A DNA stretch of 46,880 nt from Escherichia phage BEK2: the sequence record MN158206.1. One strand, given 5' to 3'. Positions 1 through 45,599 of the stretch are shown here, one piece after another; within the stretch, counting starts at the first letter, position 1, and each line of letters starts with the position of its first letter. The notes beneath the pieces are model-generated. The model was not told where the DNA came from. It saw only the letters and a list, made by a program, of their open reading frames with translations, and made no database searches. The position numbers and the translations under genes are program-made.

Positions 1-507
1 ATGAGCAAAGCAGCATTAAAGATGGGCGAAGGAAATTTCAAGGCGCTCTACAACAAGAAGTATGGCGATATTGCTATGGTGGCAATCAACCGCAAGTACA
101 CGCCTGAGGAAGTTTTCGATTTTGCGGTGAGATACTTCTCTTGGGCTGAAAGTGAGGTAATCAAAGCTATTGAGACGGCGGCTTTCCATGGCGTGGTTAG
201 TGAAAGCCTTGTACACAAACCGCGAGTGTTTACATTAACCGGGCTGGCGCTCTTTATGGGTGTTAACATCAATAGATTCGCTCGATGGCGCACTGAGGCT
301 GGATACTCTGATGTGATGGAATTTATTGATAACGTAATCTACGAGCAGAAGTACCAGCTTGGAGTTGCGGGTATCATCAACTCTACCATCGTTGGTAAAG
401 AGCTTGGTATTGATAAACCGCAGGAGATTAAGATTAGCAACAACTCCACAGCTAATGACGTTGATAGTATGAAGGAAGCACTGGAGTCCGTGATTAGTAA
501 GCTATAG
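1..507 (+). CDS. terminase small subunit (putative)
   Basis: 168-aa ORF directly upstream of the HNH/terL pair. ATG at nt 1 is served, across the window junction, by AAGGAGG (46868-46874) and a TGgTATAAT promoter (46847-46855). Assignment by size and position only. Confidence 0.55.
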   Translation: MSKAALKMGEGNFKALYNKKYGDIAMVAINRKYTPEEVFDFAVRYFSWAESEVIKAIETAAFHGVVSESLVHKPRVFTLTGLALFMGVNINRFARWRTEAGYSDVMEFIDNVIYEQKYQLGVAGIINSTIVGKELGIDKPQEIKISNNSTANDVDSMKEALESVISKL

Positions 508-547
508 CACTTATTGTTAAAAGAAGAGGCCCAATCAATGAGATAAT
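504..547 (+). promoter_or_regulatory. box promoter cassette P0
   Basis: ATAGCACTTATTGTTAAA (504-521), 21-nt spacer, GATAAT (542-547). The terS stop TAG (505-507) lies inside the box. A GGCCCA/TGGGCC hairpin spans the spacer. Drives the HNH gene. Confidence 0.55.
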
Positions 548-1088: not shown

Positions 1089-2652
1089 TTTAATCGTATG
1101 GGATGAGCTGACATACGCAGAAAAGATGGCTATCAAGGCCATCTCTGAGCATAGTTTCGAGGGGTTCTTGCGGTGTTTCTTCCAGATAACTCAGGGCGAG
1201 AGATTCAAAATGAATTGGCATGCGAAGTACCTATGCCGTGTTATAGATGAGATTCTCGAGGGAAAGAGAAAGGATACCATCATAAACGTAGCTCCCGGAT
1301 CAGCCAAAACCGAACTTTTTAGCATTCACTTCCCTGTGTATAGCATGATTAAGATTAAGAAGGTCAGGAATCTTAGTTTGTCGTTCTCTGATTCATTGGT
1401 TAAGCGCAACTCCAAACGCGTCCGTGACCTTATTAAGTCAAAGGAATTTCAGGAGCTCTGGCCTTGCACCTTTGGAACGTGCAGGGATGACGAGATTCAG
1501 GTTCTGGATGAGAATGGCAAAGTTAGGTTTGAGTCTATATCCAAGGCGATGGCAGGACAGGTGACGGGAAGCAGGGGAGGCTACATGACTGACGATTATA
1601 GTGGTTGCATAATGCTTGATGACCCACTAAAGCCTGATGACGCGTTAAGTAATGTAAGAAGAGAGGCTGTCAACATGCTTCTCAAGAACACAATTCGTTC
1701 ACGTCGAGCTAGCTCAGTAAAGGGAAAGGAAACGCCAATACTTTCCGTGCAGCAAAGACTTCATGTTCTGGACACTAGCCACTTCATGGAGTCAGGGCAA
1801 ATGGGCATAAAGTTCGACGTAGTGAAAGTTCCAGCCATAGTCACAGAGGATTACGCCGACACGCTTCCTGATTGGATCAAGCAACAATTTATTGATGATG
1901 TTCTTTCATCACCATTTGTAGAGCGGGATGGGGTTAAGTATTACAGCTACTTTCCGGCAAAGGAGTCAATAGAAGACCTGATGGCCATGTGGGATGCTGA
2001 CCAGTACACGTTCCTTAGTCAGTATCAACAAGAACCAGTAGCACTTGGCGGCAATCTGATTAACGTGGATTGGTTCCAGCGCCTTAGCGATACATTCAGA
2101 CCTCCCGCTAAGTATGATTATCGATTCATCACATGCGATACTGCGATGACTACAAAGAGTTATAGTGACTTCTCTGTACTTCAGTTGTGGGGCTATAAGG
2201 ACGCCAAGATTTACCTGATAGACCAGCGCAGAGGTAAGTGGGAGGCGCCAGAGTTGGAAGCTGAACTGCTGGACTTCGAGAAGAAATCAAGGGCAACCAG
2301 TCAGGCAGATGGCATCCTCCGAAAGATTATCATCGAGAAGAAAGCCTCTGGTATCGGTCTTATTCAATCGGCAGGTAGAGTTATGCGAACACCGATAGAG
2401 CCATACGTGCCGGATAACGACAAGCTAACTAGGGTAATGAGCGCATTGCCACAGATTAAAGCTGGTAACGTAGTTCTTCCCGAGTCAGCGTCGTGGTTAA
2501 ACGGATTGCTTACTGAGGTTGCGGCTTTTACGGCAGATGATTCGCATAAGCACGATGACCAAATTGATACCATGACAATGGCAATCAACCTGGTTCTGAA
2601 CATTGCGGACGATCCTAAGGCGCGACTAATGCGCATAGCGGGAATTAAATAG
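1081..2652 (+). CDS. terL: terminase large subunit
   Basis: Walker A-like VAPGSAKT and Walker B-like CIMLDDPLKPDD. C-terminal acidic nuclease-type motifs (ITCDTAMT, HKHDDQIDT). GGGAGG SD before ATG 1081. The 973 start in the ORF track lies inside the HNH gene. Confidence 0.85.
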   Translation: MSDLIVWDELTYAEKMAIKAISEHSFEGFLRCFFQITQGERFKMNWHAKYLCRVIDEILEGKRKDTIINVAPGSAKTELFSIHFPVYSMIKIKKVRNLSLSFSDSLVKRNSKRVRDLIKSKEFQELWPCTFGTCRDDEIQVLDENGKVRFESISKAMAGQVTGSRGGYMTDDYSGCIMLDDPLKPDDALSNVRREAVNMLLKNTIRSRRASSVKGKETPILSVQQRLHVLDTSHFMESGQMGIKFDVVKVPAIVTEDYADTLPDWIKQQFIDDVLSSPFVERDGVKYYSYFPAKESIEDLMAMWDADQYTFLSQYQQEPVALGGNLINVDWFQRLSDTFRPPAKYDYRFITCDTAMTTKSYSDFSVLQLWGYKDAKIYLIDQRRGKWEAPELEAELLDFEKKSRATSQADGILRKIIIEKKASGIGLIQSAGRVMRTPIEPYVPDNDKLTRVMSALPQIKAGNVVLPESASWLNGLLTEVAAFTADDSHKHDDQIDTMTMAINLVLNIADDPKARLMRIAGIK

Positions 2653-2692
2653 CACGAATTGCTAAACATAAAAGCCAGGGATGGCTTATAGT
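2649..2692 (+). promoter_or_regulatory. box promoter cassette P1
   Basis: ATAGCACGAATTGCTAAA (2649-2666), 22-nt spacer containing an AGCCA/TGGCT hairpin, TATAGT (2687-2692). The terL stop TAG is inside the box. Confidence 0.65.
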
Positions 2693-10501: not shown

Positions 10502-10545
10502 ATAGCACTTTTTGCTAAAGCACTTATCCAATCTTCCTGTATAGT
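10502..10545 (+). promoter_or_regulatory. box promoter cassette P2
   Basis: ATAGCACTTTTTGCTAAA (10502-10519), 22-nt spacer, TATAGT (10540-10545), then leader CATCGAAACGAAA (10551-10563). Confidence 0.65.
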
Positions 10546-21449: not shown

Positions 21450-21679
21450 TAATTCCACTCCTTAGAGCCATAATCACTAACAGATCCACCGGAGCCTTTA
21501 ATACCAGCGTAGCGAATATCAACCTCACCAGCAGGAACAACTACACCACCTTTCCACTTAGACACGCACACGCCGTTTGCTTGCGTTGCACACCAACCAT
21601 CCGGGCGAGGACCAGAAGAACAACCAACTGCCATGATTACTGCTGCTGCGATGATTGCTGATTTGATGAAGTTATTCAT
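21449..21679 (-). CDS. small lipoprotein, Cor-like superinfection-exclusion candidate
   Basis: 76 aa from ATG 21679. Signal peptide plus lipobox ([12 protein letters not shown]). AAGGA SD. Location next to the tail-tip genes matches cor in T1/phi80-type phages. Confidence 0.55.
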
Positions 21680-21714
21680 TTTGTATTCCTTAGTAATTTC
21701 GTTTCGATGGAGTA

Positions 21715-21758
21715 ATAGTATCGCATCCTTGCGATCAGTGTTTAGCAATTAGTGCTAT
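21715..21758 (-). promoter_or_regulatory. box promoter cassette P3
   Basis: Minus strand: ATAGCACTAATTGCTAAA (21758-21741), 22-nt spacer, TACTAT (21720-21715), leader CCATCGAAACGAAA. The box encodes the last five residues (NSTNC) and the stop of the methyltransferase. Confidence 0.65.
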
Positions 21759-22431
21759 TCGCCAAAAATACAGCTCTTGCAAATCCACGAGGTGTAAGAC
21801 TGCGAATTACCTTTGTTTTCTTGCTCTTCCCGCCTAGCTTCTTGTGCTGGTCTGAGTATCCATCATTAACGTCAACTGGTGAGGCTTGAGGCCATTTAAA
21901 CCCATTGCCAGACCAAATGCACGTCTTCTTAGGATATGCGTCTCTTGGCTTTATTAGGTCGCTAAAAAACGGGTGTAAATCATCTTCCGGCAAATAGCCT
22001 CCGTATTCGTAAGGGTGAAACGTGTTATCAGGTTTACTCCAGAGCGATGACAGCACGCTGACTGGGTTCTCAATCATGTATGGAACTCCGTATTTTTCAG
22101 CCAGTTTAAAAGCAACCTTGCAAGTCTCTGCCGCCTCAATTTGGAAGTTTTGGTTGGCTAGGCGCTTACGCTCAAAGTGTGCTGCCCCGCTCACGGCTAA
22201 ATCCGTACAGGGCGGGAATGCCATGATAAAATCAGGCTTCACATCAAAATCAAAACTGGAATCTATCCAGGCATTAACGTATGTAATGTTCTCATGCTCA
22301 ACCTTTGCATTTAAGTCACTGTAGCTCCCGTGGTCGGAATCATCAAAGTTGAAGCAGCAGCATGTGTGGCCAGCTTCAGCCCAATCATTTACAGCCAAAC
22401 CAGAACCATCAAATAAAGACCAGATAACCAT
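21742..22431 (-). CDS. DNA (cytosine-5) methyltransferase, compact form
   Basis: Motif I SLFDGSG, motif [13 protein letters not shown], motif VI MIENPV, C-terminal [11 protein letters not shown]. Only 229 aa. Confidence 0.75.
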
Positions 22432-22460
22432 TTCAAAACCCTCTTCGTTAAAGTGCGGCG

Positions 22461-22504
22461 ATTATACTGCACAAAATTTATTGTTCTTTAGCAATTCGTG
22501 CTAT
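22461..22504 (-). promoter_or_regulatory. box promoter cassette P4
   Basis: Minus strand: ATAGCACGAATTGCTAAA (22504-22487), 22-nt spacer, TATAAT (22466-22461). The Rha stop TAG is inside the box. Confidence 0.65.
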
Positions 22505-23252: not shown

Positions 23253-23296
23253 AATATACCTAAAGATAGTCAGTTGTCTTTAGCAATTAGTGCTAT
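23253..23296 (-). promoter_or_regulatory. box promoter cassette P5
   Basis: Minus strand: ATAGCACTAATTGCTAAA (23296-23279), 22-nt spacer, TATATT (23258-23253). Confidence 0.6.
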
Positions 23297-23320: not shown

Positions 23321-23645
23321 ACAGTTACACGTAACCGATGTAACTCGATGTATACAATCTCATTCGCGGAAAATGATATACGCGCCGTTACGCAAATTTA
23401 CGCAATAGTTACATTAAAATATCTATATATATCAACCTTTTACTATTATTATTATTATATATATTACTGTGTATATCATGTAACTACTGTTCTGGAGTGT
23501 TCCGGTTATAATTTTAATATCATGTGGATTTATACAGTATTGTGTGGCAGCCATACCAATGCACCCCCCGCAAGAAACGGTATACACGATATACACGATG
23601 GTTACATTGAGCTATATCTGGGCTGAGATGCCATTTTACGTAACA
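23321..23645. repeat. non-coding iteron/AT-rich region A (homolog of 41906-42231)
   Basis: More than 8 copies of GTAAC/GTTAC (often CGTAAC). (TA)n and (TAT)n runs (23443-23466). TATACACGA x2 (23581-23598). A 42-nt block (23603-23644) is 36/42 identical to 42189-42230. Only junk ORFs (poly-Tyr). Confidence 0.8.
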
Positions 23646-23978: not shown

Positions 23979-24944
23979 ATGAGCTTTAAGGTTTTTACAA
24001 GGGAGGAACTATCAAACTCGGAGTACCACGCTGAAACTGAACACATCTCAGGTTCCTCACTTGTCGAGATTATTCAGGGTTCACCAGCCAAGTGGAGGTT
24101 TAAGCAACGCAATAGCGATAGCAAGGCTCTTAAGTTTGGAACGCTGAGTCACACGTATATCCTAGAGGGTGACATGTTTGATAAAGAATACCTTCGAGCT
24201 ACAGACCTTGATGCGATTGATGGATTAATTACAAGCCAAGCAGGATTATCAGCAGCACTTAAAAAAGTTGGTGTAGCTGGCACGTCCGGGAAGGGGTATA
24301 GCGAGCTCGTAGAAATGATGTATCGTTCTGGTGAGGATTGGCCTGTTAAATGGTTAATTGAGCAGCAGGAGGGCGCGCAGGCGCTCGTGGAGGGTAAGGA
24401 GTTGGTTAGCGCCGCAGACTATGACAAAGTGATAGCTATGCGTGAGGTTCTTTGCAACATTCCGGAATATGATGCAATTGTGAACAGCGAGACGGCGCAG
24501 AAAGAGTTATCAATATTCGGTGAGATTCTAGGTGTTGGAGTTAAGATTCGAATCGACCACGTAGATGTTATTGATGGTGTGGTTCGGATCACAGATTATA
24601 AAACGACAGCGGACGCAAGCCCAGAAGGATTTGGTAAATCAGCATTCAATCACGGATACCTTGCAAAAATGGCATTACAGCGTGATCTATTTGTTAAGGC
24701 ATTCAACGAGAAGCGCAAGGTTGTTGTAGGATTGCTGGCACAGGAGAAGGTGGAGCCATACTTACCAATGCTGTACACCTTAACTGACGAACAGCTTCGA
24801 ATCGGTAGGTTGCAGTATCTTGAGGCGCTGGCTACTTACAAGAAGTGTAAGGAGCTAGATAGCTGGCCAGGGTACTCTAATGGCATTACAGAGCAAGAGC
24901 TATTAGTTCCTGAGTGGGCATTAAAACAATATAAAGAAATCTAA
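23979..24944 (+). CDS. PD-(D/E)XK recombination exonuclease (RecE/YqaJ-like)
   Basis: IRIDHVDV...VRITDYKT has the D...(D/E)xK arrangement. Sits immediately upstream of ERF and SSB. AAGGGGTGA SD. Confidence 0.7.
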   Translation: MSFKVFTREELSNSEYHAETEHISGSSLVEIIQGSPAKWRFKQRNSDSKALKFGTLSHTYILEGDMFDKEYLRATDLDAIDGLITSQAGLSAALKKVGVAGTSGKGYSELVEMMYRSGEDWPVKWLIEQQEGAQALVEGKELVSAADYDKVIAMREVLCNIPEYDAIVNSETAQKELSIFGEILGVGVKIRIDHVDVIDGVVRITDYKTTADASPEGFGKSAFNHGYLAKMALQRDLFVKAFNEKRKVVVGLLAQEKVEPYLPMLYTLTDEQLRIGRLQYLEALATYKKCKELDSWPGYSNGITEQELLVPEWALKQYKEI

Positions 24945-24988
24945 ATAGCACGAATTGCTAAAACAAGGTGGGATAGCTGAGGTATAGT
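24945..24988 (+). promoter_or_regulatory. box promoter cassette P7
   Basis: ATAGCACGAATTGCTAAA (24945-24962) directly after the stop TAA, 22-nt spacer, TATAGT (24983-24988). Confidence 0.65.
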
Positions 24989-25020
24989 TATACCATCAAC
25001 AACGGACGAGGTTAAAGAAA

Positions 25021-25200
25021 GTGAGAATATTTGAAAGTAAAAGCTGTAGCGACATTGAGATATTCGTTAATGAAAATGATGGATTAATTCAAACAATAGA
25101 CATATACCAAGATGGAGATGTTGTCGTTATAAGTGAAAAATGTAAGGCGATAGAGATTGCAGAATATATTTTAAAAATTTCAGAATACCTTGAGGACTGA
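25021..25200 (+). CDS. hypothetical small protein
   Basis: 59 aa, below the ORF-track cutoff. GTG start with GAGG about 10 nt upstream. Stop is 1 nt before the erf ATG. Contains IDIYQDGDVVVI, resembling the small-domain family. Confidence 0.45.
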   Translation: MRIFESKSCSDIEIFVNENDGLIQTIDIYQDGDVVVISEKCKAIEIAEYILKISEYLED

Positions 25201-25201
25201 C

Positions 25202-25852
25202 ATGCAAATTTCAGAATCATGCAAATCAATTTTAAAGGCGCTTCACACTGCAAAGGCTATGTTTGCAAAAGCGGAAAAAACAAAGTGTAACAATCACCTA
25301 AATAATAGATATGCAACTTTAGAAGACGTACTAGCGGCTGTTGAGCCTGGTTTAGATGAGTGCGGGTTGGTGATGTTCCAGAGTGTTCTTGATGATGAAC
25401 AAACGAATCGTATGAAGGTTGAAACTAAGTTGTTTCATGCAGAATCTGGAGAGTGGGTCAGCTTCTTAATGATTGTCCCAATCAGTAAGAATGATGCACA
25501 AGGTTATGGCTCAGCTTTAACATACGCTAGACGTTACGGAATCACGGCTGCCCTTGGTCTTAGCCAGGCAGATGATGATGGAAATCTGGCGGCTAAGGGA
25601 GTTAAAGACTTTAAACGAGAACTCGAGAAATGCAACACTCTTGATGAGCTTCGTAGTGTATGGAAGGAGGCCAAACAATCACTTGATGCGGCAGGATGGA
25701 AGGTTTTTGAACCTCACATTATCGAGCGAAAAGCAGAGATAGAGGCTAATGCAGCAACTGGCTTCAACCCAGCCACACCTAAGAAAGTTGCAGAAAAAAG
25801 TAGTGATAAAGAAAAGAATGAAGTAGAATCACAACAAATCGACACATTCTAA
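25202..25852 (+). CDS. erf: ERF-family single-strand annealing protein
   Basis: 216 aa from ATG 25202 (GAGGA SD). N-terminal core NNRYATLEDVLAAVEPGL...YGSALTYARRYG resembles ERF. Lies between the exonuclease and SSB. Confidence 0.7.
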   Translation: MQISESCKSILKALHTAKAMFAKAEKTKCNNHLNNRYATLEDVLAAVEPGLDECGLVMFQSVLDDEQTNRMKVETKLFHAESGEWVSFLMIVPISKNDAQGYGSALTYARRYGITAALGLSQADDDGNLAAKGVKDFKRELEKCNTLDELRSVWKEAKQSLDAAGWKVFEPHIIERKAEIEANAATGFNPATPKKVAEKSSDKEKNEVESQQIDTF

Positions 25853-29139: not shown

Positions 29140-29157
29140 ATAGCACGAATTGCTAAG
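29140..29157 (+). promoter_or_regulatory. orphan box copy, antisense to the local operon
   Basis: ATAGCACGAATTGCTAAG on the + strand between two minus-strand genes. Nearest -10-like hexamer is TATAAA (29180-29185) at 24 nt, and it runs straight into the terminator hairpin. Confidence 0.5.
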
Positions 29158-29182
29158 TTGGATTGTAGCATCTTTCGGGTAT

Positions 29183-29204
29183 AAAAAACCTCCCGAAGGA
29201 GGTT
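29183..29204 (-). terminator. rho-independent terminator (UUCG loop on minus strand)
   Basis: Minus strand: AACCTCC-TTCG-GGAGGTT followed by T6. Overlaps the primase stop codon. Confidence 0.8.
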
Positions 29205-30164: not shown

Positions 30165-30209
30165 ATTATGGCACATCCAATTCTTTACTCTTTAGCTTTT
30201 CGTGCCAAT
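30165..30209 (-). promoter_or_regulatory. box promoter cassette P9 (variant box)
   Basis: Minus strand: TTGGCACGAAAAGCTAAA (30208-30191) right after the stop TAA, 22-nt spacer, CATAAT (30170-30165). A GGATGT/ACATCC hairpin plus a T-run overlaps the -10. Confidence 0.5.
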
Positions 30210-30397
30210 TAAATAACAAAGTGATGAGTCATTCTTCGCGACAAAAAAGACTCAAGATATTTTTCAATTACGTCCTTTTTACCAGTTTTTTTGTTGTAGG
30301 CGTATGGAGTTCCGCTGGTGTTATCAACTTTACCAACAAATTTGTCGCCATCAACGTTAAAGATTGCTACGAATTTACATTTAGGTAATTTGTTCAT
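30209..30397 (-). CDS. hypothetical small protein
   Basis: 62 aa, AAGGA SD. Confidence 0.55.
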   Translation of the reverse strand: MNKLPKCKFVAIFNVDGDKFVGKVDNTSGTPYAYNKKTGKKDVIEKYLESFLSRRMTHHFVI

Positions 30398-30438
30398 TTT
30401 GTATATCCTTGTTTAGTTTATCGGCTTTCGATGTGTTA

Positions 30439-30482
30439 ACCATACCTCATCCATGAGAAATGTCTTTAGCTTTTCGTGCTGC
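30439..30482 (-). promoter_or_regulatory. box promoter cassette P10 (inside coding sequence)
   Basis: Minus strand: GCAGCACGAAAAGCTAAA (30482-30465), 22-nt spacer, TATGGT (30444-30439), leader ACATCGAAAGCCGA. The box is translated as AARKAK near the C-terminus of the HTH protein. Confidence 0.5.
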
Positions 30483-30932
30483 CTCGTTAGCGGCCTTAAT
30501 CTTGCGCCATGAGCGACACTCTGGCTTGGTGGCTAATTCTGCATCAGTGACCACGCGCAGCATGTGACGTTTTTTGCAGCGCAGGGTTAGAGGCTTGCCA
30601 TTGCCGTCGAATTGCAGATCTGGTCGGCAGAATGTGGCTCTAAAACCTTCCCCGGTTCGTTTGTAGTAGTTGTGCGATAACTGAGCACCACGTGCGGAAA
30701 TCATGCCGCGCTTAAACCATTCTTCTACAGCCTGTGGTGTTACCTTTAGCTGCTTTGCGATATTCGCTTTTGTGCCGAAGAAATCAAGAACTATATCTAG
30801 TCGCGCGCGTAGTCCGGCTCTTACTTCATCTTTTAAAACGTAGTAGCCTGAAGGTCGTTTGCGTTGTTTTTTGTCTTCAGTGCGGATAGTTCCGTTGTTC
30901 CCGTTGATTGTTCGCTTGTCGACTGTATTCAT
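30447..30932 (-). CDS. HTH DNA-binding protein (Cro/YdaS-like), candidate transcription regulator
   Basis: GTKANIAKQLKVTPQAVEEWFKRG is a helix-turn-helix segment. Basic N- and C-termini. GAGGT SD. Confidence 0.6.
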   Translation of the reverse strand: MNTVDKRTINGNNGTIRTEDKKQRKRPSGYYVLKDEVRAGLRARLDIVLDFFGTKANIAKQLKVTPQAVEEWFKRGMISARGAQLSHNYYKRTGEGFRATFCRPDLQFDGNGKPLTLRCKKRHMLRVVTDAELATKPECRSWRKIKAANEAARKAKDISHG

Positions 30933-30944
30933 TTCATTACCTCA

Positions 30945-30987
30945 GTAGCATTTTTTGTTAAAAGTCATTCTGATTTGATGGTAGTAT
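30945..30987 (+). promoter_or_regulatory. box promoter cassette P11 (variant box) for the helicase operon
   Basis: GTAGCATTTTTTGTTAAA (30945-30962), 21-nt spacer, TAGTAT (30982-30987) with TG two nt upstream. Confidence 0.5.
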
Positions 30988-31014
30988 TGTACTCAATTAA
31001 ACGCTACAAGACAA
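30986..31014 (-). promoter_or_regulatory. sigma70-type promoter for the HTH gene
   Basis: Minus strand: TTGTCT (31014-31009), 17-nt spacer, TACAAT (30991-30986). Its -10 overlaps the -10 of P11 by 2 bp. Confidence 0.5.
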
Positions 31015-31033
31015 TTTTTATAGGAATTTAGAT

Positions 31034-33028
31034 ATGTTGCCTATCGAGAAGCTGGTTGCCAACTTCGACAAAGAAAGAATCAAGCAGATTCAGAAAGACT
31101 ATCAGTTTGGTGAGATAACCCCTTACGAATTCCAGTGTGTAACATTTGATGCAATTGGCAAGGCTATTGGGAAGTACGAGGCCCCATTTATCGCTGACCT
31201 TTCAGTATCTGCGGGTAAGACAATCATTCTTGCCATGATTGGTAAGCGCATGGAGCAATTGGGGTTGCCTTATATGGTGCTCTCTCGCCAGTCAGAGATA
31301 ATCGGTCAGAACTCGGAAGAACTTCGCAATTTCGGCATCCGTAACAGCGTCTATTGCGCTGGCCTTAACGTTAAATCAGTTTACTACCCGACTATAGTGG
31401 CTAGTGAAGGCACTGCGGCTAACGGCTTGTTTAAGGGGCTTGGTGACTATGTTCCGGCAGTTATAGCTATAGATGAATGCCACATGGTAGATCACATGGA
31501 TATCGTGGAAGCAGAGGAGAACGAAGAAACATTTGAGCAAATGAGCACAAAGAAAGGCGAGATGGTTTTCAAGGATGGCGTTAATACCGGATTGCTTGGC
31601 ACTGGTCGCGCACAGTACACGCTAATAATTATTGAGATGAAGCGCCGATGCAAAGAAAAGTACGGTCGTGAGCTTCGTATCTTTGGCCTTACTGGCAGCC
31701 CGTATCGTAACAATGATCATATTGTCGTTAGCAATCCAAATGTTCGTGGATTCTGGCGCAAAACAGTGATTCAGGTTCCAACGAATTACCTTGTTGATTT
31801 GGGGTTTGTTGTACCAACCGTTTACGGAGAGGTTGGTGATTTGGGTTACGACCTTAGCGAATTTTCGCCAGACGGTAGTGATGGTGTGAAAGACTTTAGT
31901 AAGAAAGAAATGGATGCGATGACTGCGAAGATTCACGACAACCAATCCATGACTCAAAAGATAATGCAGTTTGTCGTCAAAATACTGGAGACTCGCAACG
32001 CCGCATTGGTCACCTGCGCTGGAAAACTCCATTGTGATGAGGCTGCTGCGGCATTGCCGGATGGATACCCTTACGCCATTATCACCGATTCTACCGGAGA
32101 GAGGAAGCGCAGAGAGATTCTTGCAGATTGCCAGACTGGAAAGTACAAGATTATCTTTCAGATTGGATGCCTAACTACGGGCGTAAACCAACCGCTGTGG
32201 GATACTAGCGTCATACTACGCAAGATTGGCAGTCTAACATTAATGATTCAGCTTCTTGGTCGTGGCATGCGAAAACTAAAAAAGGCGCACATAGATGCTG
32301 GGTTCAAGAAGGAAGACCACTTGGTATTAGACTTTGCCGGAGCGCTTGATGACATGGCAGAGCTTTACTTTGACCCAATAATTGAAGAGATTCAGGCTGA
32401 AAAGTTTAAATCCTCAAGAAAAGGTGGTGGTGAGGTTCGCCAGTGTCCGCAATGTGGATATGAGAACTCGCCATTTGCTAGACGCTGTAGCAATAAGATT
32501 GATGGTGTTAGATGCGATCACTTTTTCCAGTTCACAACATGTGATGATATTACCGACCAACAAACAAAGGCAGTAATCAAGAAAGGTTGTGGAACTAAAA
32601 ATGACATAGCAGCAAAAGTTTGTCGTGAATGCGGAGAAATGCTTAAAGACCCAAACGCTAACCTGACTGGAAAGATGTATCGTCGCGGAGACTATTTGCG
32701 TGTTTATGACTTCCAGGTTGGATTGAGCAAAAATCAAACTGGCATAGTAGTTAAGTATAATATCATGGCGCACAACGGAGAAAGATTTAACGCTTGGGAG
32801 TTCTTTAATCCAGAGTCTGACCATCGAGTTTGTAGTGTGCTGTGGAAAAACTTTTGCCTTTCTCATATTGAGAATCGCACAGAAGCAGCACGAATTGGCA
32901 GACTGAAGAATGCCAGAATGATTATGACTAACGCAGATAAGTTTCGTGCGCCAGTCCAGGTGACACACCGCAAGAATGGCAAAGGAAAGGACGTGATCGC
33001 TTTTAAGAATTTTGGAGAATTGTTATGA
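31034..33028 (+). CDS. SF2 DNA helicase with C-terminal zinc ribbons
   Basis: Walker A SVSAGKT, DEAH-type AIDECH, motif VI-like LLGRGMR. Two CxxC...CxxC ribbons (CPQCGYEN...RRCS; CGTKND...CRECG). Confidence 0.85.
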   Translation: MLPIEKLVANFDKERIKQIQKDYQFGEITPYEFQCVTFDAIGKAIGKYEAPFIADLSVSAGKTIILAMIGKRMEQLGLPYMVLSRQSEIIGQNSEELRNFGIRNSVYCAGLNVKSVYYPTIVASEGTAANGLFKGLGDYVPAVIAIDECHMVDHMDIVEAEENEETFEQMSTKKGEMVFKDGVNTGLLGTGRAQYTLIIIEMKRRCKEKYGRELRIFGLTGSPYRNNDHIVVSNPNVRGFWRKTVIQVPTNYLVDLGFVVPTVYGEVGDLGYDLSEFSPDGSDGVKDFSKKEMDAMTAKIHDNQSMTQKIMQFVVKILETRNAALVTCAGKLHCDEAAAALPDGYPYAIITDSTGERKRREILADCQTGKYKIIFQIGCLTTGVNQPLWDTSVILRKIGSLTLMIQLLGRGMRKLKKAHIDAGFKKEDHLVLDFAGALDDMAELYFDPIIEEIQAEKFKSSRKGGGEVRQCPQCGYENSPFARRCSNKIDGVRCDHFFQFTTCDDITDQQTKAVIKKGCGTKNDIAAKVCRECGEMLKDPNANLTGKMYRRGDYLRVYDFQVGLSKNQTGIVVKYNIMAHNGERFNAWEFFNPESDHRVCSVLWKNFCLSHIENRTEAARIGRLKNARMIMTNADKFRAPVQVTHRKNGKGKDVIAFKNFGELL

Positions 33029-33444
33029 AAATTACAGACAAAGTTGACTACATTGAGTTTTACCATGGCCCGGTTAAGTCTTGCCCGAAAGAGGATGACG
33101 AGCAAATCTTTTGCTCTGATTGGGTTAAGTATAACTATCCAGAGATGGTATTTTTCCACTGCGTGAATGAGGGTAAGAAAACCATTGGTCAGGCAAGAAA
33201 AGACCAGGCCAAGGGGCTTCTCAAAGGCGTATCAGACTGTATGTTTCTTATTCCCGAATCTATCCGAGGAAAGTACCCTTTCGGAGCCATAGAGCTAAAG
33301 AGGGCTGGGAAGACGCAGGCTAGTCCGGTCAGCGACGAGCAGAAGTCATTCCTTAAAAGCGTAAGAGAATCAGGAGGTTTTGCCGGGGTAGCCTACGGTC
33401 GCGAGGGTTTTCTAGCGGCGTTTAAAGAAATGATTTCAAAATAG
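33025..33444 (+). CDS. VRR-NUC domain nuclease
   Basis: GVSDCMF...GAIELKRAG has the D...ExK arrangement. ATGA overlap with the helicase gene. Confidence 0.7.
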   Translation: MKITDKVDYIEFYHGPVKSCPKEDDEQIFCSDWVKYNYPEMVFFHCVNEGKKTIGQARKDQAKGLLKGVSDCMFLIPESIRGKYPFGAIELKRAGKTQASPVSDEQKSFLKSVRESGGFAGVAYGREGFLAAFKEMISK

Positions 33445-33484
33445 CACGAATTGCTAAAGACGTTTCGTTGAGTTGGTGTATTAT
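33441..33484 (+). promoter_or_regulatory. box promoter cassette P12
   Basis: ATAGCACGAATTGCTAAA (33441-33458; stop TAG inside), 22-nt spacer, TGtATTAT/TATTAT (33479-33484), leader CATCGAAACGAAACG (33490-33504). Confidence 0.7.
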
Positions 33485-33522
33485 CTATTCATCGAAACGA
33501 AACGCACAAAGAGAGAAAGAAA

Positions 33523-34650: not shown

Positions 34651-35781
34651 ATGGCAACTGCAAAGATTAGCAACGAACAACTACGCGAAGAACTGGCAAG
34701 TGGCATGACCAACAAGGCAATCGCAGAGAAGTACGGAATGAACATTCGCAATGTTGAATTGCGTCGTAGTAAATTGGCTAAGAGCGGGGAATTGCACGGG
34801 AACCCAGGCATCAAGAAACTAGTTCCTGACGGTTATATGGTTAAAGGCACATCAACAATGATTGACGCGGAAGGTAACGAGAAGATCAGATGGGTTAAAA
34901 CTTCAATAGATAATGAGCGACTTGAGGTTTTAATGGAGCAAGCGCGTGAGGCTTTTTGCTCTGATTTGCCAAAGGCAGATTCGGTCACCCACTCAGGTAA
35001 TGAGGTAAATTCTGAATTAATGACTCTTTACCCGATTTTTGATATCCATATCGGCATGATGGCTCATCGACATGAGTCTGGTGAAAATTATGACACCAAT
35101 ACCGCAGAGAAATTAATGGAATCATATTTCGATCATGCAATTTCTGTATCACCATCATCAGAGAAGGCTGTGATTTTGGTTGGCGGTGATTTCCTTCACT
35201 CTGACGGACTGGAGGCTGTAACTCCAGCAAGTGGGCACTGCCTTGATCAAGATAGTCGATATGCCAAGTTAGTTTATGTGGCAATTCGCTCAATTCGCGG
35301 TGCGGTAGAGAAGATGCTTAAGAAACACAAGGAAGTCGAGATTCAAATCATAGAGGGAAATCATGACCAAAGTGGTATGATTTGGCTTCGTGCGGCAATG
35401 GCTGCATTTTATGAAAGCGAGAGTCGCGTGTTTGTTGATACCAGCCCGGCAATCATGCACAAAACACGATTTGGCTCAACACTACTTGGTTACACGCACG
35501 GTCACACGATGAAGAAAGCAGAAGGCAGGCTTGCAGCTATGGCAACTGATTACAGGAAAGATTTTGGTGAGTGTGAATTTGTTTATTGCCACTCCGGGCA
35601 TTTTCACCACGCAACTGTTACAGAGTGCACTCTTGGGATTGATGAGGTTCACCCAGCTCTGGCTAGCAAGGATGCATATGCCGCTCGAGGAGGGTGGCGA
35701 TCATATCGCCAAGCGGCTGCAATTGTTTACCACAAGAATTTTGGCGAGGTTGGTAGACACATTTATCGCCCAGGTATGTAA
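34651..35781 (+). CDS. HTH-domain / calcineurin-like metallophosphoesterase fusion protein
   Basis: N-terminal GMTNKAIAEKYGMNIRNVELRRSKL (HTH). Phosphoesterase motifs DIHIG, GGDFLH, GNHD, THGH, GHFHH. Confidence 0.7.
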   Translation: MATAKISNEQLREELASGMTNKAIAEKYGMNIRNVELRRSKLAKSGELHGNPGIKKLVPDGYMVKGTSTMIDAEGNEKIRWVKTSIDNERLEVLMEQAREAFCSDLPKADSVTHSGNEVNSELMTLYPIFDIHIGMMAHRHESGENYDTNTAEKLMESYFDHAISVSPSSEKAVILVGGDFLHSDGLEAVTPASGHCLDQDSRYAKLVYVAIRSIRGAVEKMLKKHKEVEIQIIEGNHDQSGMIWLRAAMAAFYESESRVFVDTSPAIMHKTRFGSTLLGYTHGHTMKKAEGRLAAMATDYRKDFGECEFVYCHSGHFHHATVTECTLGIDEVHPALASKDAYAARGGWRSYRQAAAIVYHKNFGEVGRHIYRPGM

Positions 35782-35825
35782 ATAGCACTTTTTGCCTAAA
35801 GCATGCCGTAGAAATGCGGCATAAT
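35782..35825 (+). promoter_or_regulatory. box promoter cassette P13 (1-nt insertion variant)
   Basis: ATAGCACTTTTTGCCTAAA (35782-35800) directly after the stop TAA, an ATGCCG/CGGCAT hairpin in the spacer, CATAAT (35820-35825). Confidence 0.5.
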
Positions 35826-37499: not shown

Positions 37500-37543
37500 A
37501 TAATAACAAAAGCCCACAAGGGGCTTTTAACAAAAGGTGCTAT
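37500..37543 (-). promoter_or_regulatory. box promoter cassette P14 with nested terminator
   Basis: Minus strand: ATAGCACCTTTTGTTAAA (37543-37526) right after the stop TAA, a 22-nt spacer holding a hairpin plus T-run, TATTAT (37505-37500). Confidence 0.55.
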
Positions 37544-37879
37544 TTAAGAGAATAACTCGTCGTCCGTCATTGTTCCTATATTCATCATCTCTTTTATGTA
37601 CTTGCTCTCATACCCGCTAAGTGCCTCGAAATTGAAATCAAACGGCCTCTTCAGGCTACCCTTGCTAACAAACTCACCACACTTACCATTAATGTAACCC
37701 GCACTCAACATCTTCGCGCAAAACTCCTTTGAAGCAGCGCTGCAAAATTCCCTATGCGACAACCCGGCGGCTTTGCTAAATCTCTGAGAGTCCTTGTGTT
37801 GGTAGATGAATCGCGCCAAATGCTGCCGTGTGAAATATGAATACGACTCGCAGAACTTAAATATATCTAGCAGGAACAT
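37544..37879 (-). CDS. hypothetical protein
   Basis: 111 aa. Start lies 4 nt after the stop of the P-loop gene (GGGGTG SD). Confidence 0.6.
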   Translation of the reverse strand: MFLLDIFKFCESYSYFTRQHLARFIYQHKDSQRFSKAAGLSHREFCSAASKEFCAKMLSAGYINGKCGEFVSKGSLKRPFDFNFEALSGYESKYIKEMMNIGTMTDDELFS

Positions 37880-39496: not shown

Positions 39497-39539
39497 ATTA
39501 TATCAACGACCGCTTATAATTCATTATCAATTTTGCTAT
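39497..39539 (-). promoter_or_regulatory. box promoter cassette P15 (variant box)
   Basis: Minus strand: ATAGCAAAATTGATAAT (39539-39523) right after the stop TAA. TTGATA is followed by a 22-nt spacer and TATAAT (39502-39497). Confidence 0.55.
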
Positions 39540-39893
39540 TTACAGGTATTGCGCCTCAAAATGGTACGTCTGGCAAAGAGTGTAAAATCCAACATCCTCG
39601 CTGCGGTAAAGCTGCCAAGCATTACCATCCTCATCGTAAATGTAACCGGCATTTTGCCCTATCCCGGCATGCATAGATACCTGGTAGCGCTTTCCTTCTT
39701 TAAAGTCTTTTTTAACTCCTGACTTGTGGTTAACCTTTGTGCAGTAAAGCGTCTTAGTCTTGACGTACTTACCGCGCTCTTCGAGGTTAACCCATTTGCC
39801 ATCTTTCTTAATCTGCTCCACACCATCTTTAACGCGAGCTTTGTAGAGTACGTTTTCGTTGCTGATCCAGCTTTTAGTAATCGTAGTGGTCAT
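39540..39893 (-). CDS. hypothetical protein (FKEGKRY...YDEDG family)
   Basis: 117 aa, AAGGA SD, first gene after P16. Confidence 0.6.
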   Translation of the reverse strand: MTTTITKSWISNENVLYKARVKDGVEQIKKDGKWVNLEERGKYVKTKTLYCTKVNHKSGVKKDFKEGKRYQVSMHAGIGQNAGYIYDEDGNAWQLYRSEDVGFYTLCQTYHFEAQYL

Positions 39894-39929: not shown

Positions 39930-39973
39930 AATATACAGGAAAAGCCCCGAAGGGCTTTAGCAATTAGTGCTAT
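39930..39973 (-). promoter_or_regulatory. box promoter cassette P16 with nested terminator
   Basis: Minus strand: ATAGCACTAATTGCTAAA (39973-39956), a 22-nt spacer containing AGCCC-TTCG-GGGCT, TATATT (39935-39930), leader CATCGAAACGAAAC. The box encodes NSTNC plus the stop of the upstream gene. Confidence 0.65.
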
Positions 39974-40208
39974 TTATTTCCTTGAGTCCAAGTGGCGTTA
40001 TCACTACCTTATACCAAGTTCCAATCTCTGGCTTATTTACATTATATGCCAGCTCTACATAACCTAGCCGAAATAGTTTTGGTATACCTCTGGATGACTT
40101 GCCACAATCACGAATCCTGCCGCGATTAAGGTCATAGCTTATTTGATGAATCTCTCCATTATGAATACAGTGGAGGGTTTTTATTGCGGATTCAGAAATT
40201 TTAATCAC
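39957..40208 (-). CDS. hypothetical protein
   Basis: 83 aa. GTG start in a GTGA overlap with the upstream micro-ORF. C-terminus NSTNC is encoded by the box. Confidence 0.5.
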   Translation of the reverse strand: MIKISESAIKTLHCIHNGEIHQISYDLNRGRIRDCGKSSRGIPKLFRLGYVELAYNVNKPEIGTWYKVVITPLGLKEINSTNC

Positions 40209-41262: not shown

Positions 41263-41300
41263 TTTTATCTCCGGTGTGTTCGTTTCGTTTCGATGAAGTA

Positions 41301-41344
41301 ACTATACGCCATCCGTGGCGGTGAGTTTTAGCAATTCGTGCTAT
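41301..41344 (-). promoter_or_regulatory. box promoter cassette P17
   Basis: Minus strand: ATAGCACGAATTGCTAAA (41344-41327), a 22-nt spacer with a CGCCA/TGGCG hairpin, TATAGT (41306-41301), leader CATCGAAACGAAACG. The box encodes NSTNC plus a stop. Confidence 0.7.
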
Positions 41345-41670: not shown

Positions 41671-41715
41671 ATAATAGCGAATCACACCCGATCGGTCATT
41701 AGCAAAAAGTGCTAT
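41671..41715 (-). promoter_or_regulatory. box promoter cassette P18
   Basis: Minus strand: ATAGCACTTTTTGCTAAT (41715-41698), 23-nt spacer, TATTAT (41676-41671), leader CCATCGAAACGAAG. Confidence 0.6.
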
Positions 41716-42798: not shown

Positions 42799-43322
42799 TG
42801 TTTGACTTTAACGAGGATAAACTGACAGAAGAGCAGGTTATGCAAGTAGCCATGGCAGATAGCCTTCCACCACTACGTGTTGCAATCAGCGCTAACGGGT
42901 ATCGACAGTCAACGGCGTTTTGGGGTTCGATTGATACCTCAGAGGTGTATAGTGGTGATGAGCTTGGTGTACTGATTAAAATCATCAGGAAAATGGGAGT
43001 TAACGGCAAAGGAGTTGTCGGCATTAGGTCTCTATACGAAGGTGCTCGCAAGGTTAAGCCCTTTGAGGGTAGCAATGGAATCATGGCGCGTATTAAGGAT
43101 GAGCTCATCCCAGCTCTAGAGGAAATTAATATCGCTTGCCTAATTGGAGATAAGATTTATGTCCACCCAGCTATCATTGATGAGTACTGGCAACCCAACT
43201 TCAAAACTTACGAAGGTGAGCACCCCAGTAGACTACCACACCACTTGCGATACAGTGACGATGAGATAATAAAGGCGATTCGGTTCTACTGGGAAGCTAA
43301 ATCACTGCTTAGCGGCGGATAG
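42798..43322 (+). CDS. domain-deleted paralog of the 37883-39466 P-loop protein (N- and C-terminal modules only)
   Basis: First 42 aa are 32/42 identical to the full-length protein. NGKGVVGIRSLYEGARKVKPFE matches its C-terminal module. No Walker motifs. Unique 45-aa tail. Confidence 0.7.
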   Translation: MFDFNEDKLTEEQVMQVAMADSLPPLRVAISANGYRQSTAFWGSIDTSEVYSGDELGVLIKIIRKMGVNGKGVVGIRSLYEGARKVKPFEGSNGIMARIKDELIPALEEINIACLIGDKIYVHPAIIDEYWQPNFKTYEGEHPSRLPHHLRYSDDEIIKAIRFYWEAKSLLSGG

Positions 43323-43362
43323 CACGAATTGCTAAAAGGGGATTCATCCTGACTGGTATAAT
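43319..43362 (+). promoter_or_regulatory. box promoter cassette P19
   Basis: ATAGCACGAATTGCTAAA (43319-43336; stop TAG inside), 22-nt spacer, TGgTATAAT (-10 at 43357-43362). Confidence 0.7.
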
Positions 43363-43524: not shown

Positions 43525-44149
43525 AATTATCATTCTTAACGGACCCGCTTCTATTGGTAAGGACACTATTGGCAACGCGTTATGCTATGATTACCGATGC
43601 ATCAAAACCAGCCTTAAGCGTCCAATGTTTGAAATTGCCGAGTCAATCCTGGGGGTGGAGGCATTCAGTAAGTTCATCACGGCTTATGATGACCGAGATC
43701 AGAAAGAGATGCCTCAGAGCTTCCTTGGTGGCAAGACCTGCCGCGAGTTCATGATCTGGATTAGCGAAACGGTAGTCAAGCCTCTATTTGGCAACCAGCA
43801 ATTCGGTAAGCTGATGAGCGAACATATAAATCTGTGTGATGAAGGATTCACGTTCGTTTGCACTGATGGCGGGTTCACTGATGAAGTCATAAAGCTTGTT
43901 GAAGATGGTCACGATGTTACCGTTGTGCGTCTATTTATGGATGGCAAGACCTTCGCAGGCGATAGTCGTAATTACATCCACATTGAAGAATCTCAGTTCC
44001 ATTACTGCTCGTGGTATCAGGAGTGTGACGTGCATCTAATAAGTGGTGACATTGATGGCGGTGTCCTGGCGGTGGCTGAGGCTTGCGGTATTAGCTCATC
44101 AGTCCCAGAGGTTGATGTTTACGAGTGGGAAGATGGATTGCCCTGGTAA
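43517..44149 (+). CDS. P-loop kinase-like protein (possible dNMP kinase)
   Basis: N-terminal ILNGPASIGKDT Walker A, typical of small nucleotide/nucleoside kinases. GAGGA SD. Substrate not inferable. Confidence 0.5.
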   Translation: MAKIIILNGPASIGKDTIGNALCYDYRCIKTSLKRPMFEIAESILGVEAFSKFITAYDDRDQKEMPQSFLGGKTCREFMIWISETVVKPLFGNQQFGKLMSEHINLCDEGFTFVCTDGGFTDEVIKLVEDGHDVTVVRLFMDGKTFAGDSRNYIHIEESQFHYCSWYQECDVHLISGDIDGGVLAVAEACGISSSVPEVDVYEWEDGLPW

Positions 44150-44193
44150 ATAGCACTTTTTGCCTAACCCTCTTCGGAGGGTTTTGTTATAGT
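44150..44193 (+). promoter_or_regulatory. box promoter cassette P20 with nested terminator
   Basis: ATAGCACTTTTTGCCTAA (44150-44167), CCCTC-TTCG-GAGGG-TTTT (44168-44185), TATAGT (44188-44193), leader CATCGAAAGCAAAC. Confidence 0.6.
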
Positions 44194-44231
44194 TATCCCA
44201 TCGAAAGCAAACAACCAAACGGAGCTACAAA

Positions 44232-44324
44232 ATGATTTCTTTACTGATGATTATCCCTGCTGTTATCGCCCTGGGTCTGATGGTTAGTGCTGGTGAGTTC
44301 TACGTCCCAGTCAACAAGAAATAG
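44232..44324 (+). CDS. possible 30-aa membrane peptide
   Basis: MISLLMIIPAVIALGLMVSAGEFYVPVNKK. GGAG SD 8 nt upstream. Stop TAG lies inside the next box. Confidence 0.35.
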   Translation: MISLLMIIPAVIALGLMVSAGEFYVPVNKK

Positions 44325-44363
44325 CACGAAATGATAAGCCGCTCCGGCGGGTTTTGTTATAGT
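44321..44363 (+). promoter_or_regulatory. box promoter cassette P21 (degenerate right half) with nested terminator
   Basis: ATAGCACGAAATGATAAG (44321-44338), CCGC-TCCG-GCGG-GTTTT, TATAGT (44358-44363). Near-duplicate of P20. Confidence 0.5.
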
Positions 44364-44392: not shown

Positions 44393-44485
44393 GTGAAGCA
44401 ATACCCATCAAGCAATCACCATAACGGTCACATCATGCAGTTCTATCGCCACAATCTGAAGACTAATGGAGTATTTGGAAAATGA
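44393..44485 (+). CDS. possible 30-aa peptide
   Basis: GTG start after GAGAGGAAAGAG. ATGA overlap with the next gene. Confidence 0.3.
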
Positions 44486-44721: not shown

Positions 44722-44855
44722 TTTACATCCACACGTACTACACTGGTAAGTTTAATAGCGTTAAGCATGCTCGAGTTCACGATAGCTACGATAGTGCAAA
44801 GGCTCAATGGTTGGTTCTTGGTGGTGATATTAATTCATATAGAGTCGCTGAATAG
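44718..44855 (+). CDS. hypothetical micro-protein
   Basis: 45 aa. ATGA overlap upstream; stop TAG inside box P22. Confidence 0.45.
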   Translation: MIYIHTYYTGKFNSVKHARVHDSYDSAKAQWLVLGGDINSYRVAE

Positions 44856-44895
44856 CACTAATTGCTAAAACAGTATTGGGGTAATTTGTTATAGT
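44852..44895 (+). promoter_or_regulatory. box promoter cassette P22
   Basis: ATAGCACTAATTGCTAAA (44852-44869), 22-nt spacer, TATAGT (44890-44895), leader CATCGAAACGAACG (44901-44914). Confidence 0.7.
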
Positions 44896-45433: not shown

Positions 45434-45572
45434 ATATGTGATTGCATGTGAACGACTGGTTTTCGATATGAAGACTTTCCACTGGTTCATCATTAAGGAT
45501 CTAATTAAGCCTTATAAGCAATGCGTTACGCCAGAGGCATTTATAAAGAACTTCTATAGCACTAAAAGCTAA
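45420..45572 (+). CDS. hypothetical micro-protein
   Basis: 50 aa from ATG 45420 (GGGGTGG SD). The C-terminal YSTKS plus stop is encoded by box P23. Confidence 0.5.
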   Translation: MNFTEYVIACERLVFDMKTFHWFIIKDLIKPYKQCVTPEAFIKNFYSTKS

Positions 45573-45599
45573 ACGCAGTCGCCACGGATGGCATATAAT
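45556..45599 (+). promoter_or_regulatory. box promoter cassette P23 (variant right half)
   Basis: ATAGCACTAAAAGCTAAA (45556-45573), a 22-nt spacer with the same CGCCA/TGGC hairpin as P17, TATAAT (45594-45599). Confidence 0.6.

Follow-up and report, generated by a model that had tools for sequence, protein, structure and literature searches.

Stop codons overlap a repeated box that probably forms part of a composite promoter cassette in T1-like phages

The re-annotation of phage TLS (PMC11447400, 2024) reports a 21-nt direct repeat, aaATAGCACnnnTTGnTAAAA, at 21 places, running along the direction of transcription ~76 nt before start codons and also present in T1, Rtp and Rogue1. In its available text the function of the repeat is treated as an open question, with stoperators, enhancers and UP elements as guesses, and only three sigma-70 promoters are given. 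Here, we analyse what proves to be the same element, hereafter the box, in the 46,880-nt DNA of Escherichia phage BEK2 (MN158206.1; the window, meaning this whole stretch). Box and TLS repeat agree in sequence, copy number (~20), orientation and distance to the start codon (~76 nt there, 72–89 nt here). As far as the available text of the TLS report goes, it calls the repeats intergenic and does not describe their overlap with stop codons, a fixed −10 partner or a role in recombination (PMC11447400); it was the only source retrieved by our literature search for a T1-family transcriptome or for the box motif. Thus, the repeat itself is already published, and what we add is its reading as a promoter half-site, its overlap with stop codons together with a proposed cause, and its role in recombination.

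The closest known analogue of the box and its surroundings is the PeSL rather than the stoperator. PeSLs are early-promoter/stem-loop cassettes of T4-like phages. Each starts at the stop codon of the gene before it; in variable regions they border small genes with no known function, and they act as crossover points for the insertion, deletion and replacement of gene units (PMC2839356, PMC4122927). Like a PeSL, the box cassette is repeated and begins at the upstream stop codon (in 17 of the 19 boxes that lie behind a same-strand gene in the window, and in 57 of 67 over four genomes), and its recombination leads to insertions, deletions and replacements of gene units, with at least five unit insertions or deletions (indels) found. 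With regard to the stem-loop of the PeSL, folding was significantly more stable than in shuffles for 8 of 22 spacers (about a third are clear hairpins), and four spacers are terminator-like; the rest show weak or no structure. Unlike PeSLs, which have consensus −35 and −10 hexamers, the cassettes studied here carry a distinct box in place of the −35, at 22 bp from the −10, and they belong to a 47-kb siphovirus instead of T4-like phages. PeSL mini-circles have been shown experimentally, whereas the box cassette is known here from its sequence alone. Our explanation, which we consider probable, is that the box serves as the upstream recognition element in a composite promoter cassette of ~75 bp that occurs repeatedly, that genome compaction has driven upstream genes against it, and that the cassettes recombine with one another.

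Annotation of the window was taken from record MN158207.1 (Escherichia phage BEK3; Drexlerviridae, Braunvirinae), with 72 genes; the first 20 kb match at 100%, and over the whole length there are seven substitutions and two small deletions (one TAT unit fewer in a TAT repeat at 23459, and one A fewer in an A-run beside the primase terminator at 29189). A search with the 14-mer ATAGCACNAATTGC, allowing up to two mismatches, gave 19 occurrences in the window compared with 1.9 expected, and alignment of the copies and their flanks added degenerate copies, for a total of 23 boxes. Chance or an annotation artefact can be ruled out as the source of the pattern, since the count is ten times expectation and the stop positions do not depend on annotation. 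ATAGCAC, TTG and TAAA are strongly kept in the repeat, which also has an A at −1 in 86% of copies and at −2 in 58%. All but one of the 23 boxes are co-oriented with the downstream gene, and in 19 the first base of the box lies 72–89 nt from the next start codon. The copies are given below; in the text, a box is named by its first base on its own strand.

504–521, plus strand: box; its TAG (505–507) is the terS stop, and its cassette would drive an inserted HNH endonuclease gene
2649–2666, plus strand: box; its TAG (2650–2652) is the terL stop
10502–10519, plus strand: box, unwelded; 33 nt and a terminator separate it from the major tail gene, which ends at 10468
21741–21758, minus strand: box ATAGCACTAATTGCTAAA, read AAT AGC ACT AAT TGC TAA; the Dcm-like methyltransferase gene (21742–22431) ends in ...ANSTNC, with its stop at 21742–21744
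21680–21740, minus strand: remainder of the 21758 cassette, with a 21-nt spacer that has a small hairpin, the −10 TACTAT (21715–21720), the leader CATCGAAACGAA (21698–21709) and a ribosome-binding site
21677–21679, minus strand: start codon of the gene downstream of the 21758 cassette
22487–22504, minus strand: box; its TAG (22501–22503) is the stop of a Rha-family gene; left flank of the box-to-box methyltransferase unit
23279–23296, minus strand: box, operon-initial with no upstream gene; sequence intact
24945–24962, plus strand: box, adjoining the TAA (24942–24944) of an exonuclease gene
29140–29157, plus strand: box, inverted, within a minus-strand gene region
30191–30208, minus strand: degenerate box TTGGCACGAAAAGCTAAA, adjoining the TAA (30209–30211) of a 62-aa gene; flanks a unit indel
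30465–30482, minus strand: degenerate box GCAGCACGAAAAGCTAAA, translated in frame 0 as AARKAK inside the regulator gene
30945–30962, plus strand: box-like GTAGCATTTTTTGTTAAA, in a divergent region upstream of a helicase gene
33441–33458, plus strand: box; its TAG (33442–33444) is the stop of a VRR-NUC gene
35782–35799, plus strand: box, adjoining the TAA (35779–35781) of a 376-aa phosphoesterase-like gene
37526–37543, minus strand: box, adjoining a TAA at 37544–37546; its spacer is a terminator hairpin
39523–39539, minus strand: degenerate box with a 1-nt deletion (ATAGCAAAATTGATAAT), adjoining a TAA at 39540–39542
39956–39973, minus strand: box, read through by an 83-aa open reading frame (ORF; ...INSTNC, stop 39957–39959); its spacer is a terminator hairpin
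41327–41344, minus strand: box, read through by a 101-aa protein (...RNSTNC, stop 41328–41330)
41698–41715, minus strand: box, operon-initial with no upstream gene
43319–43336, plus strand: box; its TAG (43320–43322) is the stop of a 174-aa protein
44150–44167, plus strand: box, adjoining the TAA (44147–44149) of a 210-aa P-loop protein; left flank of a unit made of a cassette and a 30-aa ORF
44321–44338, plus strand: box; its TAG (44322–44324) is the stop of an unannotated 30-aa hydrophobic ORF (44232–44324)
44852–44869, plus strand: box; its TAG (44853–44855) is the stop of a 45-aa protein
45556–45573, plus strand: variant box ATAGCACTAAAAGCTAAA, read through as ...YSTKS, with its stop at 45570–45572

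For each box, we tabulated the stop of the upstream open frame in all three frames, counting the first base of the box as 0. The 17 genes that end in or directly against a box, which we call welded, do so in three registers, with TAG at +1 (seven genes), TAA at −3 (six genes) and TAA at +14 (four genes). Exceptions among the boxes behind a same-strand gene were the box at 10502, where a terminator precedes the box, and that at 30482, which lies inside a gene. The other four boxes of the window have no same-strand gene upstream, as they are the first element of an operon (23296 and 41715), lie in a divergent region (30945) or are inverted (29140). Overall, 16 of the 73 coding sequences (CDSs) of the window end in a box, and the box's own TAG supplies six of its nine TAG stops. 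These results confirm the claim of the initial annotation that most boxes abut or contain the upstream stop in fixed registers, including every stop position that it gave, and add the TAA at 30209–30211.

The observation also extends across the family. Counted from annotated CDS ends, 14 of 16 boxes were welded in JeanPiccard, 13 of 17 in T1 and 13 of 15 in Klebsiella phage KP36, and additional registers appeared in the relatives at −2 (TAA or TGA using the first A of the box), 0 and +7. An automatic register count from long ORFs was set aside as unreliable because many welded genes are shorter than 50 aa, and were skipped in favour of the preceding gene. In a tally of 184 distinct junctions from all loci in hand, 61 stops were at +1, 23 at −3, 23 at +14 (16 of them ending in NSTNC) and 7 at −2. 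A scan of IMG/VR with the 14-base pattern returned mainly single chance matches in unrelated contigs, and only multi-hit loci were kept.

Downstream of each box in the window, we found a spacer of 21 nt and variable sequence, then a TATAGT-like hexamer and a conserved leader CATCGAAACGAAA, and finally a ribosome-binding site with the start codon. Among 152 distinct boxes from nine genomes, taken with no pre-filter, 109 (72%) carry TAnnnT at a distance of exactly 38 nt downstream from their first base, where the background for a single offset is 2.4. In the window, 17 of 22 boxes show the 38-nt distance, which moves along with indels inside the box. The leader lies at exactly offset 49 in 45 of the 152 boxes, also in KP36 (window examples are 21698–21709, 33490–33501 and 41284–41295); it would coincide with the start of the transcript, with a possible role in the initial transcribed region or in translation. 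Box, spacing, leader and weld are identical in KP36. With this layout, the TTGCTA of the box lies 22 bp from the −10 hexamer, which is outside the working range of sigma-70 spacers and thus too far for it to act as a −35. No −35 was found in the cassettes at 16–18 bp from the −10, where the best hexamer matches 2–4 of 6 positions, and a sigma-70 consensus scan of the window gave 28 sites compared with 35 in shuffles and missed the cassettes, in agreement with the few sigma-70 promoters given in the available text on TLS (PMC11447400). As there is no −35 at normal spacing and the distance to the −10 is rigid, we read the box as the upstream element of a composite promoter.

In the cassette that we propose, aaATAGCAC-NNN-TTGcTAAA would be followed by the 21-nt spacer (often a hairpin or terminator), the −10, the leader, the ribosome-binding site and the start codon, and expression should depend on ATAGCAC and on TTGCTAAA. 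With a transcript beginning at the A of CATCG, which lies 7 nt past the −10, the box would be centred at −42. A protein bound there, ~42 bp upstream of the putative start and hence in the class II activator position, would replace the −35 contact, with the family-specific Cro-like homologue of T1 gp23 as a candidate activator. A good −10, no −35 and a protein site ~41–44 bp upstream of the start are also features of lambda PRM with cI, of class II CRP/FNR promoters and of the Mu promoters of Mor and C. The box cassette resembles such activator-dependent promoters in its −10, its missing −35 and a site centred at about −42, with start, activation and activator all being predictions, and departs from typical class II sites in that the box is only partly dyad (arms TAGCA-N5-TGCTA in a motif of 18–21 nt).

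Alternatively, host RNA polymerase may read the box directly, as an unusual −35 or an UP-type element, with no phage activator, which would leave our explanations of the weld and of recombination unchanged. We consider this unlikely, although TTGCTA shares 4 of 6 positions with TTGACA, the box does not vary between phages of different hosts, as would be expected if its target were conserved among hosts, early genes have to be transcribed before phage proteins exist, and UP-like elements are among the suggestions in the available text of the TLS authors (PMC11447400). The 22-bp distance exceeds the sigma-70 spacer range, the box is not A/T-rich as UP elements are, and an extended −10 TG is present in only 7 of 22 cassettes. 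Other sigma factors were also considered. A sigma-54 promoter (TGGCAC-N5-TTGCW) was ruled out, since AG in the box (GG in the copy at 30208) is 8 bp from GC, not 10, and a sigma-70-type −10 follows; the degenerate copy TTGGCACGAAAAGCTAAA (30191–30208, minus strand) does resemble sigma-54 −24/−12 elements (TGGCAC...GC), with spacing two bases short. Likenesses seen by eye between CCCCAT in the leader and a sigma-32 −10, and between CTAAA and a sigma-28 −35, were rejected because neither has a conserved partner element at the right distance. As for the spacers, a near-identical hairpin (GCCACGGATGGC and variants) is found in four cassettes (2667–2686, 21721–21740, 41307–41326 and 45574–45593), which points to cassette sub-families copied within or between genomes.

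Regarding the weld, we propose that it arises from genome compaction together with the box's own sequence. AAATAG...TAAA offers stops in two frames (TAG at +1 and TAA at +14), and the third frame needs just a T before the leading AA. As the box provides stops across frames, a gene pushed against the cassette by deletion or recombination would end inside the box, and genes arriving in frame 2 would acquire a meaningless S-T-N-C tail. All six frame-0 genes of the window stop exactly at −3, none of them a few codons before. We ruled out that the TAA at −3 is a component of the repeat, making it a full three-frame stop module, because only AA belongs to the repeat and T at −3 is not enriched unless it is used (~30% where it makes no stop, compared with ~27% background); this T is thus part of the gene. 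The junctions can be remade between phages and still be welded, as indicated by the C-terminus of the 376-aa gene, which is PEMF followed by TAA(−3) in T1, PGM followed by TAA(−3) in the window, and PEMFS followed by TAA(−2) in JeanPiccard. The last residues of TerS and TerL are the same whether a box is present or not. In relatives that lack the HNH gene, terS is joined to the next gene with CTG TAA or TTA TAA in place of CTA TAG, and the protein end is unchanged.

The overlap might instead be what is selected, the box being a built-in three-frame stop or insulator that frees ribosomes before they reach the terminator hairpin and the promoter. Zero-length spacing has been kept across the three remade junctions of the 376-aa gene and across genera, T is present at −3 in all six frame-0 genes of the window, and about half of the spacers form hairpins, with four terminator-like ones that run into the −10. 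However, the TAG and TAA of the box show the same conservation in copies that no gene enters, T at −3 is enriched only where it completes a stop, and terminator-type spacers are seen with every stop register, also with +14, at which a terminating ribosome would sit on the 5' arm of the hairpin. Moreover, the late-region box at 10502 works with a 33-nt gap and a terminator upstream. Taken together, this makes selection for the overlap itself a rather improbable cause, somewhat more so than direct reading by the host polymerase.

A by-product of the weld at +14 is a set of shared C-terminal peptides. It had been claimed that three unrelated proteins of the window end in a box-encoded NSTNC, and this holds (stops at 21742, 39957 and 41328; the three have no detectable mutual similarity), as do YSTKS at 45572 and the internal AARKAK. 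Counting five more in relatives, eight mutually unrelated proteins end in NSTNC. Among the best 120 of 4,437 methyltransferase homologues found, the conserved core ends in ...AN and is followed by HV, K, Q, QH or other short tails, and STNC occurs only in the three closest (91–96% identical), which presumably share the box; two other homologues belong to unrelated phage types. Since homologues outside the family lack the tail, NSTNC is incidental rather than a functional motif. The gp23 family ends variously at its core (MLRVVR), with xSTNC, STNS or STKS (box frame 2), with AARKAKE (frame 0), or with a stop at +1, so that one DNA box is read in different frames within a single orthologous family. 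A function for NSTNC as a peptide is therefore ruled out by its unrelated carriers, by the tail-less homologues and by this frame switching. The box is another matter, because its TAG and TAA are equally conserved at the operon-initial copies 23296 and 41715; stops conserved where no gene reads in show that it is kept as DNA. The objection foreseen in the initial annotation, that orthologues without the box have unrelated C-termini, applies to the pentapeptide.

We then compared mosaic breakpoints between the window and six Braunvirinae genomes. Homology ends fell between −30 and +110 of a box in 84 of 249 cases against 16.5 expected, an enrichment of about five times. They were most frequent on the box (−10 to +20) and, in a second maximum, at the 3' end of the cassette, shortly ahead of the following start codon (+60 to +80). 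Junctions broken in at least one relative were more frequent with a box (16 of 18) than without (27 of 49; Fisher p = 0.011), and so were broken junction-by-relative pairs (56% versus 26%; Mann-Whitney p = 0.0005). Many box-less gene boundaries also carry breakpoints, with short start/stop overlaps serving as flanks, so the box is a preferred but not the sole crossover site. The clearest evidence for recombination between cassettes is given by the unit indels in which a box or cassette is the duplicated flank, listed here with the genes of a putative recombination system.

21760–22486: methyltransferase unit, present in the window and absent from BEK6; the 19-nt overlap is the box
30206–30462: 62-aa gene unit flanked by two boxes; 17-nt overlap
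44196–44318: 30-aa ORF unit between two cassettes that both align to one BEK6 cassette; 48-nt overlap
43319–43336: box whose 18 nt are exactly the overlap between the window and a 527-bp two-gene unit in JeanPiccard
33436–33503: whole cassette, copies of which flank an extra gene in BEK6 and OzMSK
23979–25852, plus strand: genes for a RecE-like exonuclease and an ERF annealing protein, as annotated in the record

The terL cassette and a 133-aa gene are absent from four relatives, and homology between box-less and box-bearing genomes ends at AAATAGC. The cassette at 21758 is joined, depending on the phage, to the Rha gene, the Dcm-like methyltransferase, an unrelated PF01555 methylase (also ending in NSTNC) or nothing. 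The suggestion of the initial annotation that the box acts as a shared homology patch, to be checked at orthologous junctions of related phages, is thus borne out by the breakpoint enrichment, the excess of broken box junctions and the unit indels, with the proviso that breakpoints are not exclusive to boxes. In analogy to lambda Red, the RecE-like exonuclease and Erf could use the cassettes as short-homology crossover sites. With its stop placed within the shared sequence, a gene would carry that stop along, and cassette-cassette recombination would add, remove and swap gene units between phages.

The initial annotation had likened the boxes to stoperators. In L5 and Bxb1, these are asymmetric sites of 13 bp at which the immunity repressor of a temperate phage binds as a monomer, with an effect on elongation (PMC9283540). 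By this analogy, also raised in the available text of the TLS report (PMC11447400), a phage repressor on the boxes would halt RNA polymerase elongating from the upstream gene, and the stop overlap would reflect that roadblock. Many copies, a single orientation relative to transcription, positions at gene ends and very short intergenic spaces are indeed common to both, and two copies occupy roadblock or operator positions (29140, downstream of TGCTACAAT, and 30945, downstream of a putative promoter of the regulator gene). The likeness is nevertheless a surface one. Unlike stoperators, the box is tied in 72% of copies to a −10 at exactly +38, which a free-standing roadblock does not need, it heads operons with nothing reading in (23296, 41715), and it is a partly symmetric motif of 18–21 nt instead of an asymmetric 13-mer. 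The rigid −10 partner and the operon-initial copies both argue against a stoperator mechanism. No L5-type repressor was present among eight window proteins scanned against Pfam, and no integrase or repressor is annotated in the Drexlerviridae record MN158207.1; phages of the T1 family are virulent. We consequently regard the roadblock as improbable. A hairpin of UAGCA...UGCUA around the stop codon in read-through mRNA, serving processing, stability or translation termination, is the least credible explanation and very improbable. Its arms can pair (5 bp, 5-nt loop, stop codon within the stem) and the inverted copy lies in a 5' untranslated region, but compensatory changes are absent (the left arm never varies, and variation at position 13 breaks a pair in 14 of 109 copies), the fixed −10 distance has no rationale at the RNA level, and some boxes (23296, 41715) are at places where a transcript from upstream is not expected.

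Returning to the composite promoter, a protein that might recognise the box is encoded as follows.

30447–30932, minus strand: T1 gp23-like regulator of 161 aa with a Cro-type helix-turn-helix domain; candidate box-binding protein

Homologues of gp23 were found in 824 phage records, and all those listed are enterobacterial phages with genomes of this family's size. The protein matches a PHROG family called transcriptional regulator and, weakly, the Pfam family P22_Cro. Its predicted structure (predicted local distance difference test, pLDDT, 88) has a Cro-type helix-turn-helix, with the Cro proteins of Xfaso-1, N15 and P22 as best matches. By co-occurrence and predicted fold, the gp23 homologue appears to be the best candidate for the reader of the box.

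Two boxes were mentioned above as lying in roadblock or operator positions. The inverted box at 29140–29157, the only copy opposed in direction to the genes around it, is conserved in five relatives, T1 among them. Along the gene strand, the order around it (29165–29204 region) is the primase terminator, an extended −10-like TGCTACAAT, the inverted box, and then the lateral tail fibre gene with its ribosome-binding site and start; lying between TGCTACAAT and this ribosome-binding site, the box is in an operator or roadblock position. In the divergent region 30933–31034, the box-like GTAGCATTTTTTGTTAAA faces the helicase gene and is located between a putative minus-strand promoter, TTGTCT-17-TACAAT (31014–30986), and the start codon of the regulator, a layout that suggests autoregulation. 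Judging from these positions, both copies could be operators or roadblocks. A more ambitious and tentative conjecture is that the gp23 homologue, through this single box, might run almost the whole transcription programme, activating ~20 promoters without a −35 from position −42 and repressing its own gene and that of the lateral tail fibre, with the box doubling as universal stop codon and as crossover site for a RecE/Erf-driven exchange of gene cassettes.

Several points weigh against the explanation that we favour. Our literature search found no transcription start data for Drexlerviridae, and so promoter activity and the −42 position are predictions from geometry read off the DNA. The link between gp23 and the box is one of co-occurrence and fold; as the box is invariant across the family, and identical in KP36, whose gp23 homologue is only 65% identical, their covariation offers no test. 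The dyad is imperfect, with C at position 13 in just 71% of copies and with conserved flanks that are asymmetric, so that symmetry does not establish the box as a dimer site. Concerning the weld, frame 1 is over-represented (68 of 114 welded junctions), which a neutral run-in model would not predict, and compaction alone does not obviously account for spacers of exactly zero, such that some selection for the overlap may also have acted. With regard to recombination, box junction zones are longer than other junction zones, and the comparison is less marked within the variable, non-structural half of the genome (14 of 15 versus 20 of 29 junctions, Fisher p = 0.13; 58% versus 34% of pairs, Mann-Whitney p = 0.012).

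T1-like phages are common, are present in therapy collections and are notorious laboratory contaminants. Reading the box as part of a composite promoter would provide a testable map of ~20 transcription units per genome, together with a candidate regulator. The overlap with stops accounts for the clustering of TAG stops at boxes and guides annotators to true gene ends, including those of unannotated small ORFs, and it warns against taking shared C-terminal peptides such as NSTNC for a protein motif. For engineering or swapping gene modules in T1-like phages, the boxes are natural "cut here" points.

Two small ORFs of the window that end in a box are not annotated in the GenBank record, namely the 30-aa hydrophobic ORF at 44232–44324 (MISLLMIIPAVIALGLMVSAGEFYVPVNKK), which has a good ribosome-binding site, and the 83-aa ORF at 39957–40208 ending in INSTNC. 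A third possible one, at ~44393–44485, follows the box at 44321 and has an ATG start in BEK6. The HNH homing-endonuclease gene (576–1088), between terS and terL, comes with its own degenerate box cassette. Finally, T1 has several boxes on the minus strand that are opposed to late structural genes (120, 15086 and 18850), most of them with no −10 partner.

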